Virus record (IMG/VR): IMGVR_UViG_3300020577_007133
Location: 1-64,000 of that record
Reading direction: 5' to 3' (one strand)
From: a virus
Taxonomy: Duplodnaviria; Caudoviricetes
DNA: 64,000 nt
Shown here: one piece after another, positions 10,377 to 32,868 of the stretch
How the letters are laid out: each line of letters opens with the position of its first letter
Position numbering within the stretch: the first letter of the stretch is position 1
Notes under the pieces: model-generated
Seen by the model: the letters and a program-made list of their open reading frames with translations, nothing else
Database searches by the model: none
Told to the model about the DNA's origin: nothing
Made by a program: the position numbers and the translations under genes

Positions 10377-10826
10377 ATGAGTTTAGTAAAAAAAGTGAAT
10401 GCTGACTTCGTGACGGCTTTCAAAGAAAAGGACACAATTGGTAAAATGGCTTTGGGTAATTTGAAATCTAAATTATCTGACGCTGAAAAAATCAAGAAAA
10501 GTGAATTGACGGATGATGAGGCGTTAAAAGTAATTGTATCAATTGCAAAAACTCGTAATCAATCAATTCAAGAATTTACCAAGGCCGGAAGAATGGATTT
10601 GGTGGAATCAGAGAAATCTGAGTTGGAAGTTATTGAGAAATATCTTCCAAAACAAATGACGGAGGACGAAATTGAATCTGAAGTTCGTAAATTAATTGTT
10701 GAGATGGAGGTAACAACAAATCCACAAGTTCTAATCGGTAAAACGATGGGAGCGTTCAACAAGAAATTTCAAGGAAGAGCGGATGTACAATTAGTTAAAA
10801 AAATAATTGAAAAAGTTGTTGGTTAA
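10377..10826 (+). CDS. GatB/YqeY domain protein
   Basis: ..AFKEKD..RNQSIQEFTKAGRMDLVESEKSELEVIEKYLPKQMTEDEI.. Confidence 0.9.
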   Translation: MSLVKKVNADFVTAFKEKDTIGKMALGNLKSKLSDAEKIKKSELTDDEALKVIVSIAKTRNQSIQEFTKAGRMDLVESEKSELEVIEKYLPKQMTEDEIESEVRKLIVEMEVTTNPQVLIGKTMGAFNKKFQGRADVQLVKKIIEKVVG

Positions 10827-11564: not shown

Positions 11565-11604
11565 TGTGTATAGGTTTTTCGGGTTGTGTATAGGATTTTC
11601 GGGT
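11565..11604 (+). repeat. 20-bp tandem duplication TGTGTATAGGWTTTTCGGGT x2
   Basis: Direct reading; between tRNA and HNH late promoter. Confidence 0.85.
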
Positions 11605-11625
11605 TTTTCGTGATATTTATATAAT

Positions 11626-12180
11626 ATGGAAGAATTAAATAGACATCAGAAAGCAGCGTTAGTAAGTAATACTAGACGTAGAGAAAAATCACTACAAGAA
11701 TATTATAGTAATCCTAATATTTGTAAGTGTTGTAATAAACCAATTCCGGTTGGTGAAAAACAAAAAGTTAGGGAAGTTAGGAGAAAGATTTTTTGTGACC
11801 ATAGTTGTTCGGCAACATTTAATAATCAATTACGAGAAATTAAAGAAAAGGTTAAGAAAATAAAAGAACCTAAACCTAAAAAAGAAAAATTTGAATTTAT
11901 ATTAAGTTTAACTAAAAAAGATTTAATAAGTAAACACGAAATTTATTATAAATTTAGAGCAGTAATTCGGAAACACGCACATTATGTGTATAATAAACAT
12001 CACGAACATCAAGAATGTAAAGTTTGTGGTTATGACACACACGTTGAAGTTTGTCATATAAAATCAGTATCATCTTTTAGTGATGATACTCTAATAAGTG
12101 AAATAAATTCTATTGATAATTTAGTTGGATTATGTCCTAATCATCATTGGGAATTTGATAATGGTAAGATAACATTATAA
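11626..12180 (+). CDS. HNH endonuclease
   Basis: CKVCG..EVCHIK..NLVGLCPNHHWEFD; FCDHSCS Zn motif. Confidence 0.9.
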   Translation: MEELNRHQKAALVSNTRRREKSLQEYYSNPNICKCCNKPIPVGEKQKVREVRRKIFCDHSCSATFNNQLREIKEKVKKIKEPKPKKEKFEFILSLTKKDLISKHEIYYKFRAVIRKHAHYVYNKHHEHQECKVCGYDTHVEVCHIKSVSSFSDDTLISEINSIDNLVGLCPNHHWEFDNGKITL

Positions 12181-12185
12181 TATAT

Positions 12186-12256
12186 TGCGGTTTGGTGTAA
12201 TTAGTAGCATAAGGGGCTCATAACCCCAAGGCGAGGTGCAAGTCCTTAATCCGCTA
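12186..12256 (+). tRNA. tRNA-fMet(CAT)
   Basis: GGGG-CTCATAA-CCCC anticodon stem and 1:72 mismatch. Confidence 0.8.
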
Positions 12257-12325
12257 GATAATCGAAGTTAATCCACCTCCACGTGGTGATTGTTGGAAAC
12301 AGGTTATGCTGGCTGAGAGATTAAC
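12257..12325 (+). ncRNA. HDV-like (theta) self-cleaving ribozyme at tRNA 3' end
   Basis: P1 GATAATC/GATTGTT with G1:U, P2 GTTAATC/GATTAAC, P3 ACC/GGT, L3 TCCACGT, P1.1 GG, P4 CAG/CTG, J4/2 CTGA (CNRA). Confidence 0.85.
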
Positions 12326-12355
12326 AAAAAATTTATTAACATTAAATACCTACGT

Positions 12356-12529
12356 ATGGCGACAGTTCAACAAAAGTCGAGACAAGCGAGAGCTTTAGAG
12401 ATGTTACAACATCAATTAAAAAGTGGTGTAAAAACCCAAAAAGGAACAAGGGACGTTAAAGTTCCACTAACCGATTTAGACAGAAAGAGGTTAGAAAAAG
12501 AGATTGGAATTTTACAATCCAAATTATAA
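12356..12529 (+). CDS. small basic hypothetical protein (57 aa)
   Basis: MATVQQKSRQARALEMLQHQL..RLEKEIGILQSKL; not in ORF track. Confidence 0.6.
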   Translation: MATVQQKSRQARALEMLQHQLKSGVKTQKGTRDVKVPLTDLDRKRLEKEIGILQSKL

Positions 12530-12618
12530 TAAAAAAATAGATGAATAGACCACATCCGGGATTAGTGATTTAATTAAAGGGTCTCATTCGGTACACAAGT
12601 CCGAAGTTCATCTTAACT

Positions 12619-15555: not shown

Positions 15556-16377
15556 ATGAAATATAGACACACAAAAGAAGAACTTGAGGATGTAGTTAAA
15601 AAATCGTTATCAATATCACAAGTATGTAAAAATTTAGGTATTATTGCTGCGGGTGGTAATTATAAAACGATACAAAACAAAATAATTGAATTTGATATTA
15701 ATATATCACACTTTACCGGTAAAGGGTGGAATACTGGTGAAAGATATAGAAAAGTTATATTACCAATACCTTTGAATGAAATATTAGTAAAGGGGTCTGT
15801 ATATGGTAGTAGTAAATTGAAAAAAAGATTGATTGATGAAGGATTAAAAACTTCTAAGTGTGAGTGTTGTAATTTATCAGAATGGATGGGAAATCCAATT
15901 GGTTTGGAATTACATCACATCAACGGGGATTCAAATGATAATCAATTACATAATTTACAAATTTTATGTCCAAATTGTCATTCTATGACTGATAATTATA
16001 GAGGTAGAAATATTAAAACAAAAAAAACAGAACCAACTGAAGAATGGGTCAACACCACACTTAAATATGTTATAAATAAGAGTGATGATGAAACAAAACA
16101 AATAAAAAAACAAGAAATTAAACAATGTTTAACTTGTAACGGAGAATATACCGGAAAAAGTAAAAAATATTGTTCCATTGAATGTTATTACGAAGCAAAA
16201 AGAATAAATAACACAATCCCGAAAGTTCCTGAATTATTGGAAATTTTTGAAAAATATAAAACATTCACATCCGTTGGTCGTCATTACAATGTTAGTGATA
16301 ATGCGGTTAGAAAGTGGTGTAGAAATTATGGGATTATGGAAATGATACAAAATATTCAAACATTAAAGCGACAGTGA
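15556..16377 (+). CDS. HNH homing endonuclease with C-terminal HTH
   Basis: CECC..LELHHINGDSNDNQLHNLQILCPNCHS; VSDNAVRKWC. Confidence 0.9.
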   Translation: MKYRHTKEELEDVVKKSLSISQVCKNLGIIAAGGNYKTIQNKIIEFDINISHFTGKGWNTGERYRKVILPIPLNEILVKGSVYGSSKLKKRLIDEGLKTSKCECCNLSEWMGNPIGLELHHINGDSNDNQLHNLQILCPNCHSMTDNYRGRNIKTKKTEPTEEWVNTTLKYVINKSDDETKQIKKQEIKQCLTCNGEYTGKSKKYCSIECYYEAKRINNTIPKVPELLEIFEKYKTFTSVGRHYNVSDNAVRKWCRNYGIMEMIQNIQTLKRQ

Positions 16378-17372: not shown

Positions 17373-17445
17373 CGTCCCGTAGCTTATGTGGTAGAAGCAC
17401 TTGACTCATAATCAGGAGAATTGGGTTCGACTCCCAACGGGACAA
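17373..17445 (+). tRNA. tRNA-Met/Ile2(CAT)
   Basis: CTTGA-CTCATAA-TCAGG; C1:A72. Confidence 0.85.
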
Positions 17446-17566
17446 CAATCGATATTTGAGTGTAAGCAAGGTATAATATCAGTCGTTGGACTCTTACAGG
17501 TCGCGAACGGTGGTCTGATTGTCGTTAATCAGTGTAGGTACCCGGGAACCCTACGTTTATCAGAAT

Positions 17567-18738: not shown

Positions 18739-19188
18739 ATGTACAGAATTTATTTAGACGATATTAGAACCCCAACCGGAGATAATTGGATTGTTGTAAG
18801 GAATTACGACGAATTCGTTAATAAGGTTAATGAACTTGGGCTACCTAATATTGAAATCATTTCTCTTGACCACGATTTGGGTGATACTGCAATGGATGAG
18901 TATTTCAATAATGTTTCACCAAATTATGAATTGAATTATGATAACATTAAGGAGAAGACCGGGTATGACGCTGCTAAATTCTTGGTGTCATTATTTCACA
19001 ATACAAACGAAGCTCGTTTCAATATGAGTAGAAGTGAGAGAAAAGCTGACAAATTTGTATTTCCTTTGGTGTATGTTCATTCGGCAAACCCAATTGGTAG
19101 TGCGAACATAATGGGATATTTGAACAATTTTTATATGAACGAGGGTCAAGCACAAACTTGTATAAGAGTCCAAATACCACACGTATAA
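18739..19188 (+). CDS. cyclic-phosphate-processing receiver-domain protein
   Basis: IYLDDIRTP, ISLDHDLG, KTGYD, VHSANPIG motifs. Confidence 0.8.
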   Translation: MYRIYLDDIRTPTGDNWIVVRNYDEFVNKVNELGLPNIEIISLDHDLGDTAMDEYFNNVSPNYELNYDNIKEKTGYDAAKFLVSLFHNTNEARFNMSRSERKADKFVFPLVYVHSANPIGSANIMGYLNNFYMNEGQAQTCIRVQIPHV

Positions 19189-19679
19189 TGAATATATTTT
19201 TCTTGGATGAGAATCCAAAACTATCGGCACAATACCACGTAGATAAACACGTAGTAAAAATGATTTTAGAAACGGCTCAGTTATTATGTTCGGTTCATCA
19301 CGTAACCGGTCAAAATACCGACCAAGTTCCGTACAAGTTATCACATAAGAATCATCCTTGTGCGGTATGGGCTCGTGAGAGTTTATCGAATTATTTGTAT
19401 TTGTGTGAGTTAGGATTAGAATTGGGTGTTGAATATACTCATAGGTACGGTAAAAGACACAAATCAATAGATGTGATTAATTGGTGTATAATTAATAAAC
19501 CAAACATCCCGGATATTGGTTTTACTACTCCGGCAATGGCGATGCCGGATGAGTTCAAAACAGATTCTGTTGTGGAATCTTATAGAAATTATTATATGGG
19601 TGCTAAAGATAATTTGGCATCTTGGAAAAACCGAGAGAAACCATTTTGGTTTGGAAAAAAAGAATTACAATATGATTAA
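19188..19679 (+). CDS. pyrimidine-dimer DNA glycosylase / DenV-related family protein
   Basis: MNIFFLD..DKHVVKMILETAQLL..HKNHPCAVWAR. Confidence 0.8.
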   Translation: MNIFFLDENPKLSAQYHVDKHVVKMILETAQLLCSVHHVTGQNTDQVPYKLSHKNHPCAVWARESLSNYLYLCELGLELGVEYTHRYGKRHKSIDVINWCIINKPNIPDIGFTTPAMAMPDEFKTDSVVESYRNYYMGAKDNLASWKNREKPFWFGKKELQYD

Positions 19680-20334
19680 AATAGATAAAGAAAGAAAAGT
19701 TTTTGTAACATCCGATACACATTACGGACACAAAAACATTTGCCGTGGAGTAACGGCTTGGAGATTACCGGATGGTAGTATTCCAATATCTCAAACTAGA
19801 GATTTTCAAACAATCGAACAAATGAACGAAGCCATTATTAGTGGAATCAATAATGTTGTAGGGGAAGACGATGTGTTAATTCACTTGGGAGATTGGTCTT
19901 TTGGTGGATTTGAAAATATCCAAAAGTTCAGAGATAGAATTGTGTGTAAAGAGATTCACCTTATATTAGGTAATCACGACCATCACATAAAAAATAACCG
20001 GGAAGGTTGTCAGGAACTATTTGCTAGTGTTTCTCGTTCAGATATTATGACCTACAAATTCAAAACATTTGAATTGTTTCACTTTCCAATTGCTTCTTGG
20101 GAAAATCTAAATAGAGGTGTTATTCACCTTCACGGACACGTTCACTTACCTACAAACCTAAGATTTGGTAAAGGTAAAAAGATGGATGTTGGTATAGATG
20201 GTCACCCAACGTTTGGTGTATATGATATGGATGATATCATACGAATGATGGATAAACGTGAGATTATGTCAGATATGTTATTTGACCACCACACGGATGA
20301 GGTTGAAACTGAAGATGGAAAAAGACGTAAATAA
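19672..20334 (+). CDS. calcineurin-like metallophosphoesterase
   Basis: SDTH, LGD, GNHD, HGHVH. Confidence 0.9.
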   Translation: MIKIDKERKVFVTSDTHYGHKNICRGVTAWRLPDGSIPISQTRDFQTIEQMNEAIISGINNVVGEDDVLIHLGDWSFGGFENIQKFRDRIVCKEIHLILGNHDHHIKNNREGCQELFASVSRSDIMTYKFKTFELFHFPIASWENLNRGVIHLHGHVHLPTNLRFGKGKKMDVGIDGHPTFGVYDMDDIIRMMDKREIMSDMLFDHHTDEVETEDGKRRK

Positions 20335-20335
20335 T

Positions 20336-20614
20336 ATGAACGAATTAATTTGGAAATTTGAAATACCTGCTCAGACAAACTCTCAGGTAGAATTACCTCA
20401 CGGATGTGAGATATTAAGTGTTGGTTCTCAAGGGGATTTTGTTTTTATGTGGGGTAAGTTCCCGGAAGAATATAAAGACAGATTAGAGCCCCGAGAGTTT
20501 GAAGTTTACGGAACCGGTCATCCGATTCCGGGTGATGTTAAAAGAAAGTTTATTGGAACCGTACATATGTATGGAGGTTCATTAGTGTTTCACATATTTG
20601 AAAAATTAAGTTAA
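20336..20614 (+). CDS. hypothetical protein
   Basis: IWKF..GTGHP..IGTV..VFHIFE conserved phage pattern. Confidence 0.7.
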   Translation: MNELIWKFEIPAQTNSQVELPHGCEILSVGSQGDFVFMWGKFPEEYKDRLEPREFEVYGTGHPIPGDVKRKFIGTVHMYGGSLVFHIFEKLS

Positions 20615-20615
20615 T

Positions 20616-20891
20616 ATGGAAAAAGAAAGAGATTTAGTTATTTGTGCTTGTCATAGCACGGAACATCAGATGGTAATTTTGTATAGTGAAGATATTCTTG
20701 ATGGTGAGAGATATCCGGAAGTATATCTTCACATATTACTAAATAAACGACCTTTTTGGCAAAGGGTTAAGTATGGTCTTAAATATATTTTTGGATATCA
20801 ATCTCGTTATGGTGCATTTGAAGAAATAATTATTGATAAAAAAGATGTGGGTAAATTTAAGAAAGTTGTTGAACATTTAGAAAGTTTATAA
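20616..20891 (+). CDS. hypothetical protein
   Basis: Operonic ORF. Confidence 0.7.
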   Translation: MEKERDLVICACHSTEHQMVILYSEDILDGERYPEVYLHILLNKRPFWQRVKYGLKYIFGYQSRYGAFEEIIIDKKDVGKFKKVVEHLESL

Positions 20892-21103
20892 TGAAACAAT
20901 TTTTGATATTAATCACATTCATTATCTTAACTTCTTGCGGTGTTGAACAACGAATTAAAGATTATTCTTATACTGATAAGTGGTATTATGAAAATAATAT
21001 CCGGTATCAAGTTTATAAAACTAAACGTGGAACTCCTTATATTATCGTGTTAAATAAGAAAGAAACAAAGTTTAAAAGAAAATATATTAAAATTTCTTTA
21101 TAA
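20891..21103 (+). CDS. small lipoprotein
   Basis: MKQFLILITFIILTSC lipobox. Confidence 0.65.
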   Translation: MKQFLILITFIILTSCGVEQRIKDYSYTDKWYYENNIRYQVYKTKRGTPYIIVLNKKETKFKRKYIKISL

Positions 21104-21160
21104 AAAATTTGGCAGTTAATTTTATTAGTTATACTTTTGTCTCATCAAATAATAATAATT

Positions 21161-21532
21161 ATGGCAACACGTAGCAAAACTTTAGGATTACACGAATGGA
21201 CAAAAGAAGATAACATCTTAGCATTCTATTACACAAAATACGGAACTTATGGTTTGTATTTGAAAGATGAAAATTCATTGGCAAAATGGATTGGTTCTTC
21301 ATTAGGTTCTTTAAAAATGCAATCAGCCAACTTCCGTGGTCTTATGGGTGAATCTGAGAGAGCTTTGAGTGATTACTCAAAATTACAAGCGGAGGTGTAT
21401 AACGAGTATGGTGATATGTCTAAAATGGAATTGATGAAAGTTGCAAAACGTATCATCGACCAAGACACATACGAGAGAAATGAAATTTTGAAAAAAATGG
21501 GTAAAGACCCTAAAAAAATGGTAAGAGTATAA
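21161..21532 (+). CDS. hypothetical protein
   Basis: ORF after promoter. Confidence 0.7.
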   Translation: MATRSKTLGLHEWTKEDNILAFYYTKYGTYGLYLKDENSLAKWIGSSLGSLKMQSANFRGLMGESERALSDYSKLQAEVYNEYGDMSKMELMKVAKRIIDQDTYERNEILKKMGKDPKKMVRV

Positions 21533-22620
21533 TGGAAAGAAAATTAGCGTCGATTAGACGAATTAGTGACATCCAAGAAATCCCGGGAGCCGACTTAATT
21601 GAGTTGGCTCTTGTTGATGGATGGAAAGTTGTTGTGGCAAAAGATGTTGGTCACAAAGTTGGTAATTTGGTTGTATATTGTGAGATTGACTCATTTTTAC
21701 CAATCAAAGAAGAATTTGAATTCTTACGTAAGAGTTCGTATAAGAAAATGGGAGACCAAGAGGGTTTCCGATTAAGAACCGTTAAATTAAGAGGTCAGGT
21801 ATCTCAAGGGTTGATTTTACCAATATCAGTTTTTGGTGCATATGGTTATAGAATGTCCGAAGATTTACTTAACGAAAATCCGGCACTGGAACCTAACAAA
21901 AGTGTTATATCACCATCTGAAATGATTGAATTGGTTGTTGGTAATGATGTGACAGAAGTATTGGGTATTGTTAAATACGAACCACCAATCCCGGCAGAAC
22001 TAGCCGGAAAGGTTAAAGGATTATTTCCATCTTTCATCCGTAAAACCGATGAGGAAAGGATTCAGAACTTGGCTTCTGAGTATGAAGAAATGAAAAAACA
22101 CACTTACTACGAAACTGAAAAGTTGGATGGTTCTTCCGCGACATTCTTCTACAATAATGGTGAATTTGGTGTATGTTCTCGTAATTTAGAATTACTTGAA
22201 ACTGAAGGAAACACATTTTGGAAAGTTGCCCGTGAATTAGATTTGGAGAACAAAATGAGAGAGTATGGTATGAACATATCTTTTCAGGGGGAGCTCATAG
22301 GTGAAGGGGTGCAGGGAAATCCATATAAAATCAAAGGTCAAACCGTAAGATTCTTCAACTTGTTTGATATTGATTTACAGGTATACCATTCATTACCTGT
22401 CTTCAAAGAAACTATGAAAGAATTAGGGTTAGAAACAGTACCGGTGTTAAATACGAATTTCAAATTACCGGATACTATTGATGAACTATTGAAGATGGCT
22501 GATGGTAAATCAGAATTAAATCCGAACTTTGATAGAGAGGGTATTGTGATTAGAAGTTTGGATAGAAAAATCTCATTCAAAGTAATATCAAATAAATTTT
22601 TATTAAAACACGAAAAATAA
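21532..22620 (+). CDS. RNA ligase, DRB0094/Rnl2-like with N-terminal OB domain
   Basis: RKLASIRRI..VYCEIDS..SQGLILP; EKLDGSS, QGELIG, REGIV, FKVIS. Confidence 0.9.
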   Translation: MERKLASIRRISDIQEIPGADLIELALVDGWKVVVAKDVGHKVGNLVVYCEIDSFLPIKEEFEFLRKSSYKKMGDQEGFRLRTVKLRGQVSQGLILPISVFGAYGYRMSEDLLNENPALEPNKSVISPSEMIELVVGNDVTEVLGIVKYEPPIPAELAGKVKGLFPSFIRKTDEERIQNLASEYEEMKKHTYYETEKLDGSSATFFYNNGEFGVCSRNLELLETEGNTFWKVARELDLENKMREYGMNISFQGELIGEGVQGNPYKIKGQTVRFFNLFDIDLQVYHSLPVFKETMKELGLETVPVLNTNFKLPDTIDELLKMADGKSELNPNFDREGIVIRSLDRKISFKVISNKFLLKHEK

Positions 22621-22623
22621 GAG

Positions 22624-22950
22624 ATGAGTGGAGGTGCATTTGAATACCAGCAATATAATATTGGTCGTATCGCAGACCAAATAGAACAAACAATTATTAA
22701 GAATGGGGTTAAGAAGACCCCGGAAGAGATAAAAGATGATTGGCATAATGATGAGTGGTATGAAAAATACCCTGAAGATAAATTCCATTACAAATATCCG
22801 GATGAGGTTATTGAGAAGATGAAAGAGGCGGTTAAGGCTCTTAAGATAGCTCAAGAATATGCTCAACGAGTGGATTGGCTATTATCAGGTGACGATGGTG
22901 AGGAATCATTTTTGAGTAGATTGGACGAAAACTTAAAAAAAATAGAATAA
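22624..22950 (+). CDS. hypothetical protein
   Basis: MSGGAFEY..RVDWLLSGDDGEESF. Confidence 0.75.
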   Translation: MSGGAFEYQQYNIGRIADQIEQTIIKNGVKKTPEEIKDDWHNDEWYEKYPEDKFHYKYPDEVIEKMKEAVKALKIAQEYAQRVDWLLSGDDGEESFLSRLDENLKKIE

Positions 22951-22951
22951 G

Positions 22952-23977
22952 ATGTTAGAAAAACTAAATCAATATTACGAAGACGGATTACTTTACAAAC
23001 AAGTACATCCAACACTTCCATTAACCATATGGAACTACACAGAAACCGTGCAGTTTGAAGGAAAGTGGGACGAAATAACTTTGATGTGCCGTGGGTTGGT
23101 AACGGATGATAAAGGAAATATTGTTGCAAGACCTTTTACCAAATTTTTTAATATAGAGGAAGGAAAATACACTCCAACTGAAAACTTTGAGGTATTTGAA
23201 AAAATGGATGGTTCATTAGGTATCGTATTTTGGTACGAAGGACAATGGATACTTGCAACCCGTGGTTCATTCACCTCAGACCAAGCAGTCAAAGGAACCG
23301 AAATCTTAAAGAGATACAACACCGACATATTGTTTAGACATATGACTTTTTGTTTTGAAATTATCTATCCGGAGAACAGAATTGTTTTGGATTATGGTGA
23401 TGATGAAAAACTTGTTATGTTGGGAGCGTTTGACCGGTGGGGTAAAGATTATGATATCTCAGATTGGGATGAATGGGGATTTGACGTGGTTAAAAAATAC
23501 GATGGAATTAAGGACTTCAAAGAACTTAAAGCTATGGTAAAAGATGACCAAGAAGGGTTCGTGGTGAAATTCACCAATGGAGATAGAGTTAAAATCAAAG
23601 GGGTAGAATATCTACGTCTTCACAAAATTATGACCAATATGTCAACCACTGCCGTTTGGGAGTGTCTGAAAAATGGTGATGATATTGAAACTCTATTGAA
23701 AGATGTTCCGGATGAGTTCTATAAAAAAATCAAAGATTATGTTAGAGATTTGAGATACGCTCATTTCCAAATATCTGAGAGAGCGGGAAAACTTCACGAT
23801 GGATTCCGATATGGGAAATATGGTGATGTTGACCCGGAACCATCCAAAAAAGAATTTGCTGAGTTCGTATTCAAACAACAAAAAGTGTTACAACCTGTAA
23901 TGTTTGCGATGTGGGATAAAAAGAACTACGATGAAATTATATGGAGGATTATCCGTCCGGAATTTAAGAAACTTTAA
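22952..23977 (+). CDS. T4 Rnl1-like RNA ligase
   Basis: CRGL, ARPFTKFFN, EKMDGSLG, EGFVV, RVKIKGVEY. Confidence 0.9.
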   Translation: MLEKLNQYYEDGLLYKQVHPTLPLTIWNYTETVQFEGKWDEITLMCRGLVTDDKGNIVARPFTKFFNIEEGKYTPTENFEVFEKMDGSLGIVFWYEGQWILATRGSFTSDQAVKGTEILKRYNTDILFRHMTFCFEIIYPENRIVLDYGDDEKLVMLGAFDRWGKDYDISDWDEWGFDVVKKYDGIKDFKELKAMVKDDQEGFVVKFTNGDRVKIKGVEYLRLHKIMTNMSTTAVWECLKNGDDIETLLKDVPDEFYKKIKDYVRDLRYAHFQISERAGKLHDGFRYGKYGDVDPEPSKKEFAEFVFKQQKVLQPVMFAMWDKKNYDEIIWRIIRPEFKKL

Positions 23978-29554: not shown

Positions 29555-30450
29555 TTTGGATTATCCATCAGGAAGTTGATGATGAGACCCTCGGGTTGAT
29601 TCTGAGATAACTGAAAAACGATAATTGGCGGTATATCGTCATTAAATAAACCGGGAAACCGGGATTAAAGTGGAACCATCAGTGTTATTGGTTCTGCGGC
29701 TTCTGAAAAGGAGCTCGAGTATACAAGTCGGATATCACCTGACCTTCAGTATTGAGGGCAACGCTTTAGAGAAAGTGGTTGGGTGACCGGGCGATGTGGG
29801 TCGTCAGGTTGAGATGGGAACATCAATAAGAATAACCGATAGGAATCAAGTAAGAAATAGGGTCATCCAACCTTATAATTGCGGGTTCCAATATCAGAGG
29901 GGACTTAAAACCGAAAGGTATGATAGAGAACGAGTGGTGTCGCTACTATCCTTACGAAACATCTACCAAGGTGTCAGTTTGAAGTAATCTTAAAATATGA
30001 GAGTGGGGACACTCTACCGAGTAGATTAGTATTTTGTTGTTCAAAAGATAACGAAGCTTATGACAGACCTCTACTTGGACACATCCACAACACAGACATT
30101 TTATAACTTTACACAGGAAAATGTAAAAATTATACTAAATATAGATATAAAAGCAAAAGTGTCTGTCAGGTATCATCGACAAGGTGACTACATAGTAACG
30201 AGCTGTTCGTTGCACAGGATGACCGCAAGTCTGAATGTATTCTTACGAAAAACCTCTAAGGAGTCGAATCCCGAGTCAGTCCGCAAGATTGAAGAGAGTT
30301 GAATAATAAGAGAGTAGATGATATCTCAAGGAGTAATTGGTCTAACCAATTGTCACTGAGGATTACCACTCAAAAGGTGGTGGAAACGAAGGGAACAAAT
30401 AATCCTTCTAAAGATTCTCAATAAGACGAGTATTCTCATCGTATTAAGCC
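29555..30450 (+). ncRNA. large structured ncRNA of about 900 nt (GOLLD-like)
   Basis: No credible ORF, GC-richer, many GNRA-type hairpins, own promoter plus boxA and terminator; family name not verified. Confidence 0.6.
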
Positions 30451-32473: not shown

Positions 32474-32868
32474 TGGTGGAGATGAGGGGAATCGAACCCC
32501 TTTCTTGCATACCTTAAAAATTAAGGACTACACGCTTAGGACATTGTTTAGCTAACAATCCGAAATTTCACAATTCCCTTATTTTTTAAGTGGTTCGGTT
32601 TACTGAGAACTAATCTTCCACTCGTACCTTTTCGGGTAGGTACCACACCTTTGTAGAGACTTCTGTTGCAAGGTTATATGTCCATCGACCCCGTGTTGTG
32701 TTTCCGCTTAGGCTACTACAACTTCCTCAGCACGGATTAAACCGATAGCTGACATTTTGTCTAAAATGTTGCCATTTATAGTTTTGTTACTCATAGATTT
32801 AAGTGATAGAGAACATCTCACTGCGTGCCCCGAATGATTAACAATACCAATCAATACCGGTCATCCCC
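32474..32868 (-). ncRNA. ssrA: tmRNA; tag (A)GNILDKMSAIGLIRAEEVVVA at 32773-32708
   Basis: 5' GGGGATGACCGG..; 3' GGGGTTCGATTCCCCTCATCTCCACCA with G3:U70; ATAAAT-GGC resume codon; next to smpB. Confidence 0.92.

Follow-up and report, generated by a model that had tools for sequence, protein, structure and literature searches.

The DNA considered here (the 'window') is a stretch of 64,000 nucleotides (nt) that represents the first 64 kb of IMG/VR virus record IMGVR_UViG_3300020577_007133, a 104,772-bp record from the Caudoviricetes with a CheckV completeness of 35%. On its plus strand, a non-canonical transfer RNA gene, tRNA(CAU) (12186-12256; anticodon CAT at 12219-21), which encodes no CCA, is followed without a gap by a ribozyme of the hepatitis delta virus (HDV)-like class (12257-12325). 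An HNH homing-type endonuclease gene (11626-12180, plus strand; PF13391, 2.1e-10) ends 5 nt before the tRNA, and an open reading frame (ORF) encoding 57 amino acids, which has no assigned family (no Pfam or PHROG family match was found), occupies 12356-12529 of the same strand and starts 31 nt after the ribozyme; the ribozyme is thus intergenic. Its identification draws upon a structural descriptor, shuffled controls, an alignment to Rfam model RF02682, a covariance model built from close relatives, covariation and homology boundaries, and it most likely serves to make this tRNA's 3' end by self-cleavage.

The fold can be assigned in full. A 7-bp P1 (GATAATC at 12257-63 and GATTGTT at 12288-94) is closed at the cut site by a G.U wobble between G12257, the G1 of P1, and T12294, and the predicted self-cleavage site (12256/12257, plus strand) lies immediately 5' of that G. 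A short J1/2 (GAA, 12264-66) leads into P2, in which GTTAATC (12267-73) and GATTAAC (12319-25) form seven Watson-Crick pairs; an extra C (C12274) then precedes P3 (ACC at 12275-77, GGT at 12285-87) and its loop L3 (TCCACGT, 12278-84), from which CC at 12279-80 can pair with GG at 12295-96 as P1.1. P4 comprises 3 bp (CAG at 12300-02, CTG at 12309-11), and J4/2 (CTGAGA, 12313-18) is preceded by a G and opens with C12313, the candidate catalytic cytosine. The nested double pseudoknot order of HDV-like ribozymes (P1, P1.1, P2, P3, P4) is therefore present, together with a G at +1 that closes P1 as G.U and a cytosine at the catalytic position that opens J4/2. The column of C12313 is invariant in an alignment of 20 sequences (A1), and a few weak matches in the larger alignment described below (A3) are without CTGAGA.

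A descriptor that specified G1, a 7-bp P1, a P2 of 5-9 bp, a 3-bp P3, CC/GG for P1.1 and C as the first base of J4/2 matched only 12257-12325 when both strands of the 104.8-kb record were searched, and it found nothing in 30 dinucleotide shuffles of that record. Positions 1-74 of RF02682 (HDV-F-prausnitzii) align exactly to the same 69 nt. The original prediction for this locus, made from the DNA letters, had placed every HDV-like element between 12186 and 12325, and in that respect was borne out.

The exact position of the ribozyme relative to the tRNA depends slightly upon how the tRNA is numbered. In the ARAGORN call, tRNA-Met(cat) spans 12185-12257 and is drawn with a stem of 8 bp. Rfam model RF00005 covers 12187-12255 (35.8 bits), one base being deleted from the acceptor stem. 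The two agree on U8 (12193) and on the D stem (12195-98/12207-10). Because U8 lies at 12193, an acceptor stem of 7 bp puts position 1 at 12186, position 72 at 12255 and A73 at 12256, and G12257 then adjoins the discriminator base at an offset of 0, as had been predicted. The ARAGORN call takes in G12257 by one base, and the Rfam call leaves one base before the cut. The three readings of the tRNA end thus never disagree by more than one base in either direction, a margin equal to the tolerance in the published description of theta ribozymes, which are minimal HDV-like ribozymes of Caudoviricetes that have no P4 and often lie directly beside tRNAs (Kienbeck et al. 2024, PMC10879173); there, the cleavage site falls within 5 nt of the phage tRNA 3' end, and within 1 nt in 77% of cases (PMC10879173).

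The junction of tRNA(CAU) and ribozyme is conserved in other contigs. Four viral and 58 metagenome stretches were retrieved by a search for exact patterns in which P3/L3, GG and CTGAGA served as anchors. The same 69-nt ribozyme occurs in five contexts (L006/L011, L007, L031/L053, L032 and L046) at 93-97% identity, while the flanks diverge, and the copy in L046 is identical to that of the window. The anticodon-loop sequence CUCAUAA precedes the ribozyme in each of the five; ARAGORN calls an abutting tRNA-Met(cat) in L031, L032 and L046, and in L031 a 49-bit tRNA with a clean C1xA72 and A73 ends at the base immediately preceding the ribozyme. The similarity to L032 takes in the HNH gene as well as the tRNA and the ribozyme (11590-12328, 71% DNA identity; the HNH proteins are 61% identical). 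In blastn comparisons, the ribozyme-bearing contigs cease to match at 12328 of the window, and the matches to four relatives without the ribozyme set in at 12330-12333, so the 3' end of the element is bracketed independently of the fold model.

Sequence changes among these relatives affect P1 and P4. In P1, the relatives carry AACAATC, which places A-U in lieu of G.U at +1 and C-G in lieu of U.G at position 3, so that GATTGTT, which is invariant, remains paired at both places; P4 shows a compensatory change from A-U to G-C in L032 and a G.A mismatch in L031/L053. A covariance model (R1) constructed from five close sequences identified a single site in the window, along with 47 more that are spread over 37 other loci, and the R1-guided alignment (A3) was used in place of the MAFFT alignment A1, in which P1 was out of register. 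Across 47 distinct family sequences in the R1 alignment, 99.3% of 567 cells are standard pairs and both sides have changed in 11 of 13 pairs (7/7 in P1, 1/3 in P3 and 3/3 in the modelled P4); the covariation score was reached by none of 500 shuffles, and slid-partner controls pair at only 32-55%. These pairing figures lean towards structure, because the alignment is itself fitted to structure. When the P1 partner was sought independently over 24 offsets, where the chance of a perfect 7-bp match is about 2.5%, such a match turned up in some 55 of the 62 stretches retrieved (not counting the row of the window), and P2, which lies outside the reach of the covariance model, is represented by 16 distinct complementary helices. 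Longer P4 helices are present at the same place elsewhere in the family. Within 43 distinct contexts of the CTGAGA type, the ribozyme abuts a tRNA only in this subfamily and in one tRNA-Ser case (L036). Some contigs hold several copies: five HDV-like matches lie on one strand of a single 5.2-kb metagenome contig (L062, 1067-4431), and two or three each are found in L004, L012, L021, L040 and L060.

The identity of the partner tRNA is less clear-cut than its position. Its anticodon arm (12213-12227) reads GGGG/CUCAUAA/CCCC and contains three consecutive G:C pairs (29-31:39-41), and under the 7-bp numbering it has a U1xU72 mismatch (U12186 x U12255), the pairs G2-C71/C3-G70/G4-C69 and A73. The run of G:C pairs in the anticodon stem, a 1:72 mismatch, the three acceptor pairs and A73 are all traits of initiator tRNAs. 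The mismatch depends upon that numbering, since Rfam draws G1-C72 with a bulge and ARAGORN an 8-bp stem. Two further initiator traits, A11:U24 and a canonical T arm, are replaced here by U11:A24 and by a 4-bp T stem with the loop UGCAAGU, and the GGGG/CCCC anticodon stem is not kept in the orthologous tRNAs of L006 or of three ribozyme-less relatives (G003-G005). The other tRNA(CAU) of the window, at 17373-17446, shows C1xA72 together with A73 and is without the three G:C anticodon-stem pairs, so that the hallmarks of an initiator are divided between the two genes. Both are probably methionine tRNAs, because tRNA-Ile(UAU) and tRNA-Ile(GAU) are also present; for the same reason, a lysidine-bearing tRNA-Ile2 was considered and found unlikely. 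The claim that the ribozyme cuts after an initiator tRNA-fMet is thus favoured by the anticodon stem and, under the 7-bp numbering, by the 1:72 mismatch and A73, and weakened by U11:A24, the odd T loop and the rival tRNA with C1xA72; a role of the 12186 tRNA as an initiator is plausible.

The surroundings of the pair suggest a single transcript. No TAnnTTTG promoter-like motif and no terminator were found on the plus strand between 10849 and 12695 (scans for sigma-70 and Bacteroidota-type promoters performed at chance level), and the tRNA and the 57-codon ORF are for that reason probably transcribed together. An endonuclease gene touches the unit in the window, L032, L006, L007 and L031, which is to say in every ribozyme context. 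In L006, L007 and L031 this is a convergent ORF of 242 amino acids that resembles Vsr/DUF559 proteins and lies downstream of the ribozyme (minus strand of each locus: L006 2211-2942, L007 1744-2472, L031 10049-10777); its last 19 or so codons are antisense to the ribozyme, and its C-terminal ...NNHHVEVD corresponds to the reverse complement of the P3/L3/P1' core. Homing endonuclease genes are dense in these islands, with another HNH gene at 15556-16377 of the window, and with genes of the GIY-YIG as well as the HNH type in L006 and L031.

The pair is part of a tRNA island in a jumbo-phage fragment. ARAGORN makes 23 tRNA or transfer-messenger RNA (tmRNA) calls in the window. Encoded CCA is absent from 21 of the 22 tRNAs with a called anticodon in the island (1046-28981), with two exceptions overall, and most of the trailers there begin with C followed by a run of A. 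This suggests that all of the island tRNAs except the one linked to the ribozyme share a 3' processing signal of host type. A YqeY-like gene (GatB/YqeY domain; 10377-10826; PF09424, 2.8e-33) also lies within the island. A full-length GOLLD RNA (304.8 bits) and a phage tmRNA are located at 30017-30442 and 32474-32868 (minus strand), coordinates that are given for the two jointly; both RNAs are also present in L031. A blastn search of 11600-12600 against 50,697 deposited phage genomes returned no match. Because the relatives that were reached through a cREC-domain protein of the record, described below, include records of 308 and 318 kb that are both rated 100% complete, the record is regarded as a piece of such a genome. 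The phage uses the standard genetic code, as originally predicted: under code 11, stop-to-stop frames of at least 100 amino acids cover 86% of the record, the longest frames gain no length if TGA is read as W or TAG as Q, all three stops terminate long ORFs, and no suppressor tRNA is found in the record.

Close relatives provide a view of the same slot without the ribozyme. None of 60 viral loci with cREC homologues, each taken with up to 10 kb on either side, contains an R1 match, and five whole records, two of them 100% complete, contain no credible match to R1 or to RF02682. An 18-bit R1 match in G003 (L126) was rejected as spurious, being without the HDV core and with no tRNA nearby. In G003-G005, the syntenic slot (from tRNA-Asp to the homologue of the 57-codon ORF) holds two tandem tRNA(CAU) genes, of which one is the non-canonical ortholog of the window tRNA and the other is canonical with a 1:72 mismatch; both end in ...CGCTA and are followed by plain spacer. 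No HNH gene is found at the slot in the ribozyme-less relatives, and the 57-codon ORF is kept there, directly after tRNA(CAU). Since these relatives have a plain tRNA(CAU) at the slot, the ribozyme is a sporadic addition in the lineage, and the host can evidently finish such tRNAs without it.

Some 6.4-8 kb downstream of the ribozyme, on the same strand, lie genes with a bearing on RNA repair. A cREC-domain protein (18739-19188; PF20274, 1.4e-18, 67.7 bits against a gathering score of 27; phrog_1479) carries the acidic motifs YLDD and SLDHDLGD, and a calcineurin-like metallophosphoesterase (19672-20334; PF00149, 7.6e-8; phrog_547, 4.7e-46) retains the full motif set DTHYGH, GDW, GNHDH and HGHVH. 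The receiver-domain and phosphoesterase annotations that had been guessed for these two genes are thereby correct. The phosphoesterase is a possible 3'-phosphatase and the cREC protein a possible healing partner of the cut tRNA; searches of PDB sequences with each returned no meaningful relative. An ORF of 165 amino acids (19188-19676), which has only a weak Pyr_excise match (E 0.0014), always lies between the two in relatives and is 91.5% identical in G004. Farther along the plus strand are an RNA ligase of the DRB0094 family with OB and nucleotidyltransferase domains (21532-22620; PF21189 and PF09414; TIGR02306 at 185.1 bits, over its equivalog cut-off of 151.15) and a T4 Rnl1-like RNA (tRNA) ligase (22952-23977; PF09511, 2.1e-19; phrog_562, 6.1e-66). 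No CCA-adding enzyme, polynucleotide kinase (PNK) or AAA_33 kinase was found in the 104.8-kb record. In a complete relative, the cassette runs cREC, 165-amino-acid ORF, phosphoesterase, 96-amino-acid ORF, P-loop kinase and Rnl1; the P-loop kinase is without a homologue in the 104.8 kb, where the DRB0094 ligase and small ORFs fill the interval (20334-22950, compared with L072 3103-3992).

HDV-type cleavage leaves a 2',3'-cyclic phosphate and a 5'-OH, and a mechanism built upon that chemistry can be proposed for the locus. The ribozyme would be transcribed together with the preceding tRNA(CAU) gene, and in the folded pseudoknot C12313 and a bound Mg2+ would catalyse attack of the 2'-OH of A12256 upon the phosphate before G12257. 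The tRNA would then terminate in a 2',3'-cyclic phosphate at its discriminator A12256, and the 5'-OH would be left on the ribozyme, which would remain joined to the RNA downstream, in which the 57-codon ORF lies. We infer that this cleavage takes place and that it is the route to the mature 3' end; the 5' side would be trimmed by ribonuclease (RNase) P, the cyclic phosphate would be removed by an enzyme of either host or phage, and CCA would be added afterwards, as it must be because the gene encodes none.

Several observations weigh against that interpretation and in part favour a chance resemblance, or a decayed and inactive copy. The RF02682 score of 30.5 bits (E 3.8e-5 for the whole record) falls under the gathering score of 44, and RF01787 scores 15.6 against a gathering score of 37 (the HDV-like models in Rfam are narrow); P4 is a weak helix of just 3 bp, mismatched in L031/L053; the minimum free energy fold of the 69 nt does not outperform shuffles (z = 0.49), a poor value that is expected because the element is a pseudoknot, and from which no support is gained; and +1 is A, not G, in the ribozyme-bearing relatives L006, L007, L031 and L032. 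Many natural HDV-like copies have an A at +1 paired to U, including those of the ACCCCAC family (for example L012, L013 and L016). In addition, the tRNA, with its low score of 35.8 bits, 4-bp T stem and G at T-loop position 55, may be non-working, and close relatives do without a ribozyme at this tRNA slot. Chance or decay is nevertheless very improbable when set against the absence of descriptor matches in the shuffles, the conservation of exactly these 69 nt while their flanks diverge, core residues that are all intact (including G1.U and the J4/2 C) and the covariation throughout the family. The cut might alternatively serve the downstream RNA, by giving the mRNA of the 57-codon ORF a structured 5'-OH end that is resistant to 5'-end-dependent RNases and uncoupled from the tRNA. 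The short distance to that ORF, the lack of a TAnnTTTG motif or terminator between 10849 and 12695, and the 39 of 43 related CTGAGA-type ribozymes that are not beside a tRNA (which indicates that the family has other uses) speak for such a role; it is quite unlikely, however, given that L006, L007 and L031 have the convergent gene in place of the ORF and the ribozyme still abuts tRNA(CAU), and that relatives have the ORF behind the tRNA and no ribozyme between the two, leaving the tRNA as the constant partner. A further possibility is that endonuclease, tRNA(CAU) and ribozyme form a mobile unit, in which the ribozyme provides a 3' end independent of flanking DNA or insulates the neighbours, and tRNA supply is secondary. 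The endonuclease genes that touch all five contexts (HNH upstream in the window and L032, Vsr/DUF559-like downstream in L006, L007 and L031), the four ribozyme-less relatives with two plain tRNA(CAU) genes and no endonuclease gene at the slot, and the sharp homology breaks at 12328/12330 all fit this proposal. Homing endonuclease genes are so dense in the islands that the adjacency could be chance, though, two nuclease families occupy two different positions, and the sample is small and partly related; mobility is hence rather unlikely, and as it still requires a cut at the tRNA end, it would add to the formation of a tRNA 3' end by the ribozyme instead of replacing it.

In a dedicated pathway for healing of the cut end, the cREC protein would open the cyclic phosphate, the phosphoesterase would remove the phosphate and the host CCA enzyme would finish the tRNA. 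An HDV-cut tRNA is inactive until it is dephosphorylated, such that translation in the PURE system depended upon T4 PNK (PMC12381190), and cREC, which was named from its context by Iyer et al., is predicted to process cyclic phosphates and is linked to RNA ligases (PMC7824862, PMC9503650). The window has both cREC and an intact phosphoesterase, and the lack of a CCA enzyme or polynucleotide kinase in 104.8 kb makes a classical heal-and-seal pathway look incomplete; the record also has a DRB0094-type ligase, which 54.5% of theta genomes encode (PMC10879173). Moreover, cREC was found in 8 of 50 viral records with a minimal theta ribozyme (G008-G057) and in none of 29 tRNA-bearing control records longer than 50 kb (G058-G086). 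That enrichment (one-sided Fisher p = 0.02, or 0.08-0.11 in subsets matched for size or completeness) comes from a small test that is uncorrected for relatedness, with many of the theta records derived from one sample and about four lineages. Against a dedicated pathway stand the 60 cREC loci whose 10-kb flanks are free of the ribozyme, the two complete relatives (308 and 318 kb) in which cREC is 86-90% identical and neither model finds an HDV-like element, and the 24 of 31 theta-bearing records at least 90% complete that have no cREC (the other seven do). In the eight records with both, cREC and the ribozyme are 18-28 kb apart, or 158 kb in G008 (about 20 kb only if that linear record were circular); the activity of cREC is itself a prediction (PMC9503650), and the record of the window is just 35% complete. 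The order cREC-phosphoesterase-Rnl1 is conserved in ribozyme-less relatives, including the two complete genomes, and because it is found there with a P-loop kinase, the cassette is best described as a general tRNA-repair kit. Such a kit could also heal a ribozyme-cut end, with a rather low probability, and the dedicated pathway as a whole is likewise rather unlikely. Thus, the suggestion that nearby genes could supply the healing step stands as a possibility, and the notion of a specific link is disfavoured by the ribozyme-less cassettes, the theta phages without cREC and the distances involved. A combined scenario, in which a portable tRNA(CAU)-ribozyme gene moves with homing endonucleases between jumbo-phage islands and is healed by phage cREC and phosphoesterase, is unlikely; if true, it would provide the first substrate for cREC and an example of tRNA maturation by RNA plus protein, independent of host RNase Z.

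When the locus is placed beside known systems, theta ribozymes offer the closest functional parallel. More than 70% of their associations are with tRNA-Met, suppressor tRNAs or tRNA-Leu, only 4.5% of their partner tRNAs encode CCA, and of the genomes with a tRNA-associated theta ribozyme 53% plus 6% are recoded, so that about 41% use the standard code; in vitro cleavage was reported for four theta/tRNA pairs (PMC10879173). The present element resembles them in that its cut site abuts the 3' end of a CCA-less phage tRNA, with tRNA-Met among the three commonest partners, in its 7-bp P1 and 7-bp P2, in the DRB0094 ligase and standard code of its genome, and in a P3/L3 (ACC-TCCACGT-GGT) and a P1.1 GG identical to those of theta no. 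1, the commonest published sequence (Supplementary Data 1). It differs in that 16 nt, which include a 3-bp P4, separate P1.1 from the catalytic C (theta no. 1 has about 6 nt there), and in having a 6-nt J4/2 (CTGAGA, as opposed to CTAA), a 3-nt J1/2 and an extra C before P3, and a host from a jumbo-phage lineage of about 300 kb with GOLLD RNA and tmRNA. The 6-nt J4/2 and 3-nt J1/2 probably fall outside the RNArobo descriptor of Kienbeck et al. With its P4 and its standard-code jumbo-phage host, the element suggests that surveys based on descriptors undercount ribozymes of this sort. The name 'theta ribozyme' in the original prediction accordingly fits the position at a tRNA end and the P3/L3 core, and does not fit the minimal, P4-less definition, in view of the short P4 and a J4/2 of the Faecalibacterium prausnitzii type.

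That second family supplies the structural parallel. The best Rfam match, over its full length, is drz-Fpra-1/RF02682, with which the element shares the core, a P4 hairpin and the CU(A/G)AGA form of J4/2; the P4 of the window is the shorter of the two and aligns with two positions that are non-canonical, and the score of 30.5 bits lies under the gathering score of 44. To our knowledge, the F. prausnitzii element has not been described as linked to a tRNA. The ribozyme would work like a theta ribozyme and structurally is a P4-bearing cousin of the F. prausnitzii type, close to the theta ribozymes but outside the definition given by the authors of the theta study.

Two other systems bear upon the healing of the cut end. 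In engineered tRNA-HDV fusions (PMC12381190), as here, the ribozyme directly follows the tRNA and leaves a cyclic phosphate to be removed (there by T4 PNK); those constructs are artificial and include CCA in the tRNA, whereas the layout of the window is natural and CCA-less. The T4 Pnkp/Rnl1 and jumbo-phage cREC-ligase kits (PMC7824862, PMC9503650) are matched by the occurrence of cREC, phosphoesterase and Rnl1 together downstream of the tRNA island. In contrast to such heal-and-seal kits, the record lacks the P-loop kinase of the complete relatives, and a DRB0094-type ligase lies in its place. We know of no published link between such kits and a ribozyme-cut tRNA.

As matters stand, the ribozyme is unremarkable in itself, and the repair genes have the look of a general kit. 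The value of the locus lies in the way in which it makes a question raised by the theta model concrete, namely what removes the CCA-blocking cyclic phosphate in vivo, and in the convenient test bed that it offers, as its genome encodes cREC and an intact phosphoesterase and can be compared with sister genomes that have no ribozyme. Set beside the theta ribozymes, the F. prausnitzii element and the engineered fusions, it would represent a natural, ribozyme-made tRNA 3' end that lies outside the strict minimal-theta definition and is carried by a standard-code jumbo phage.

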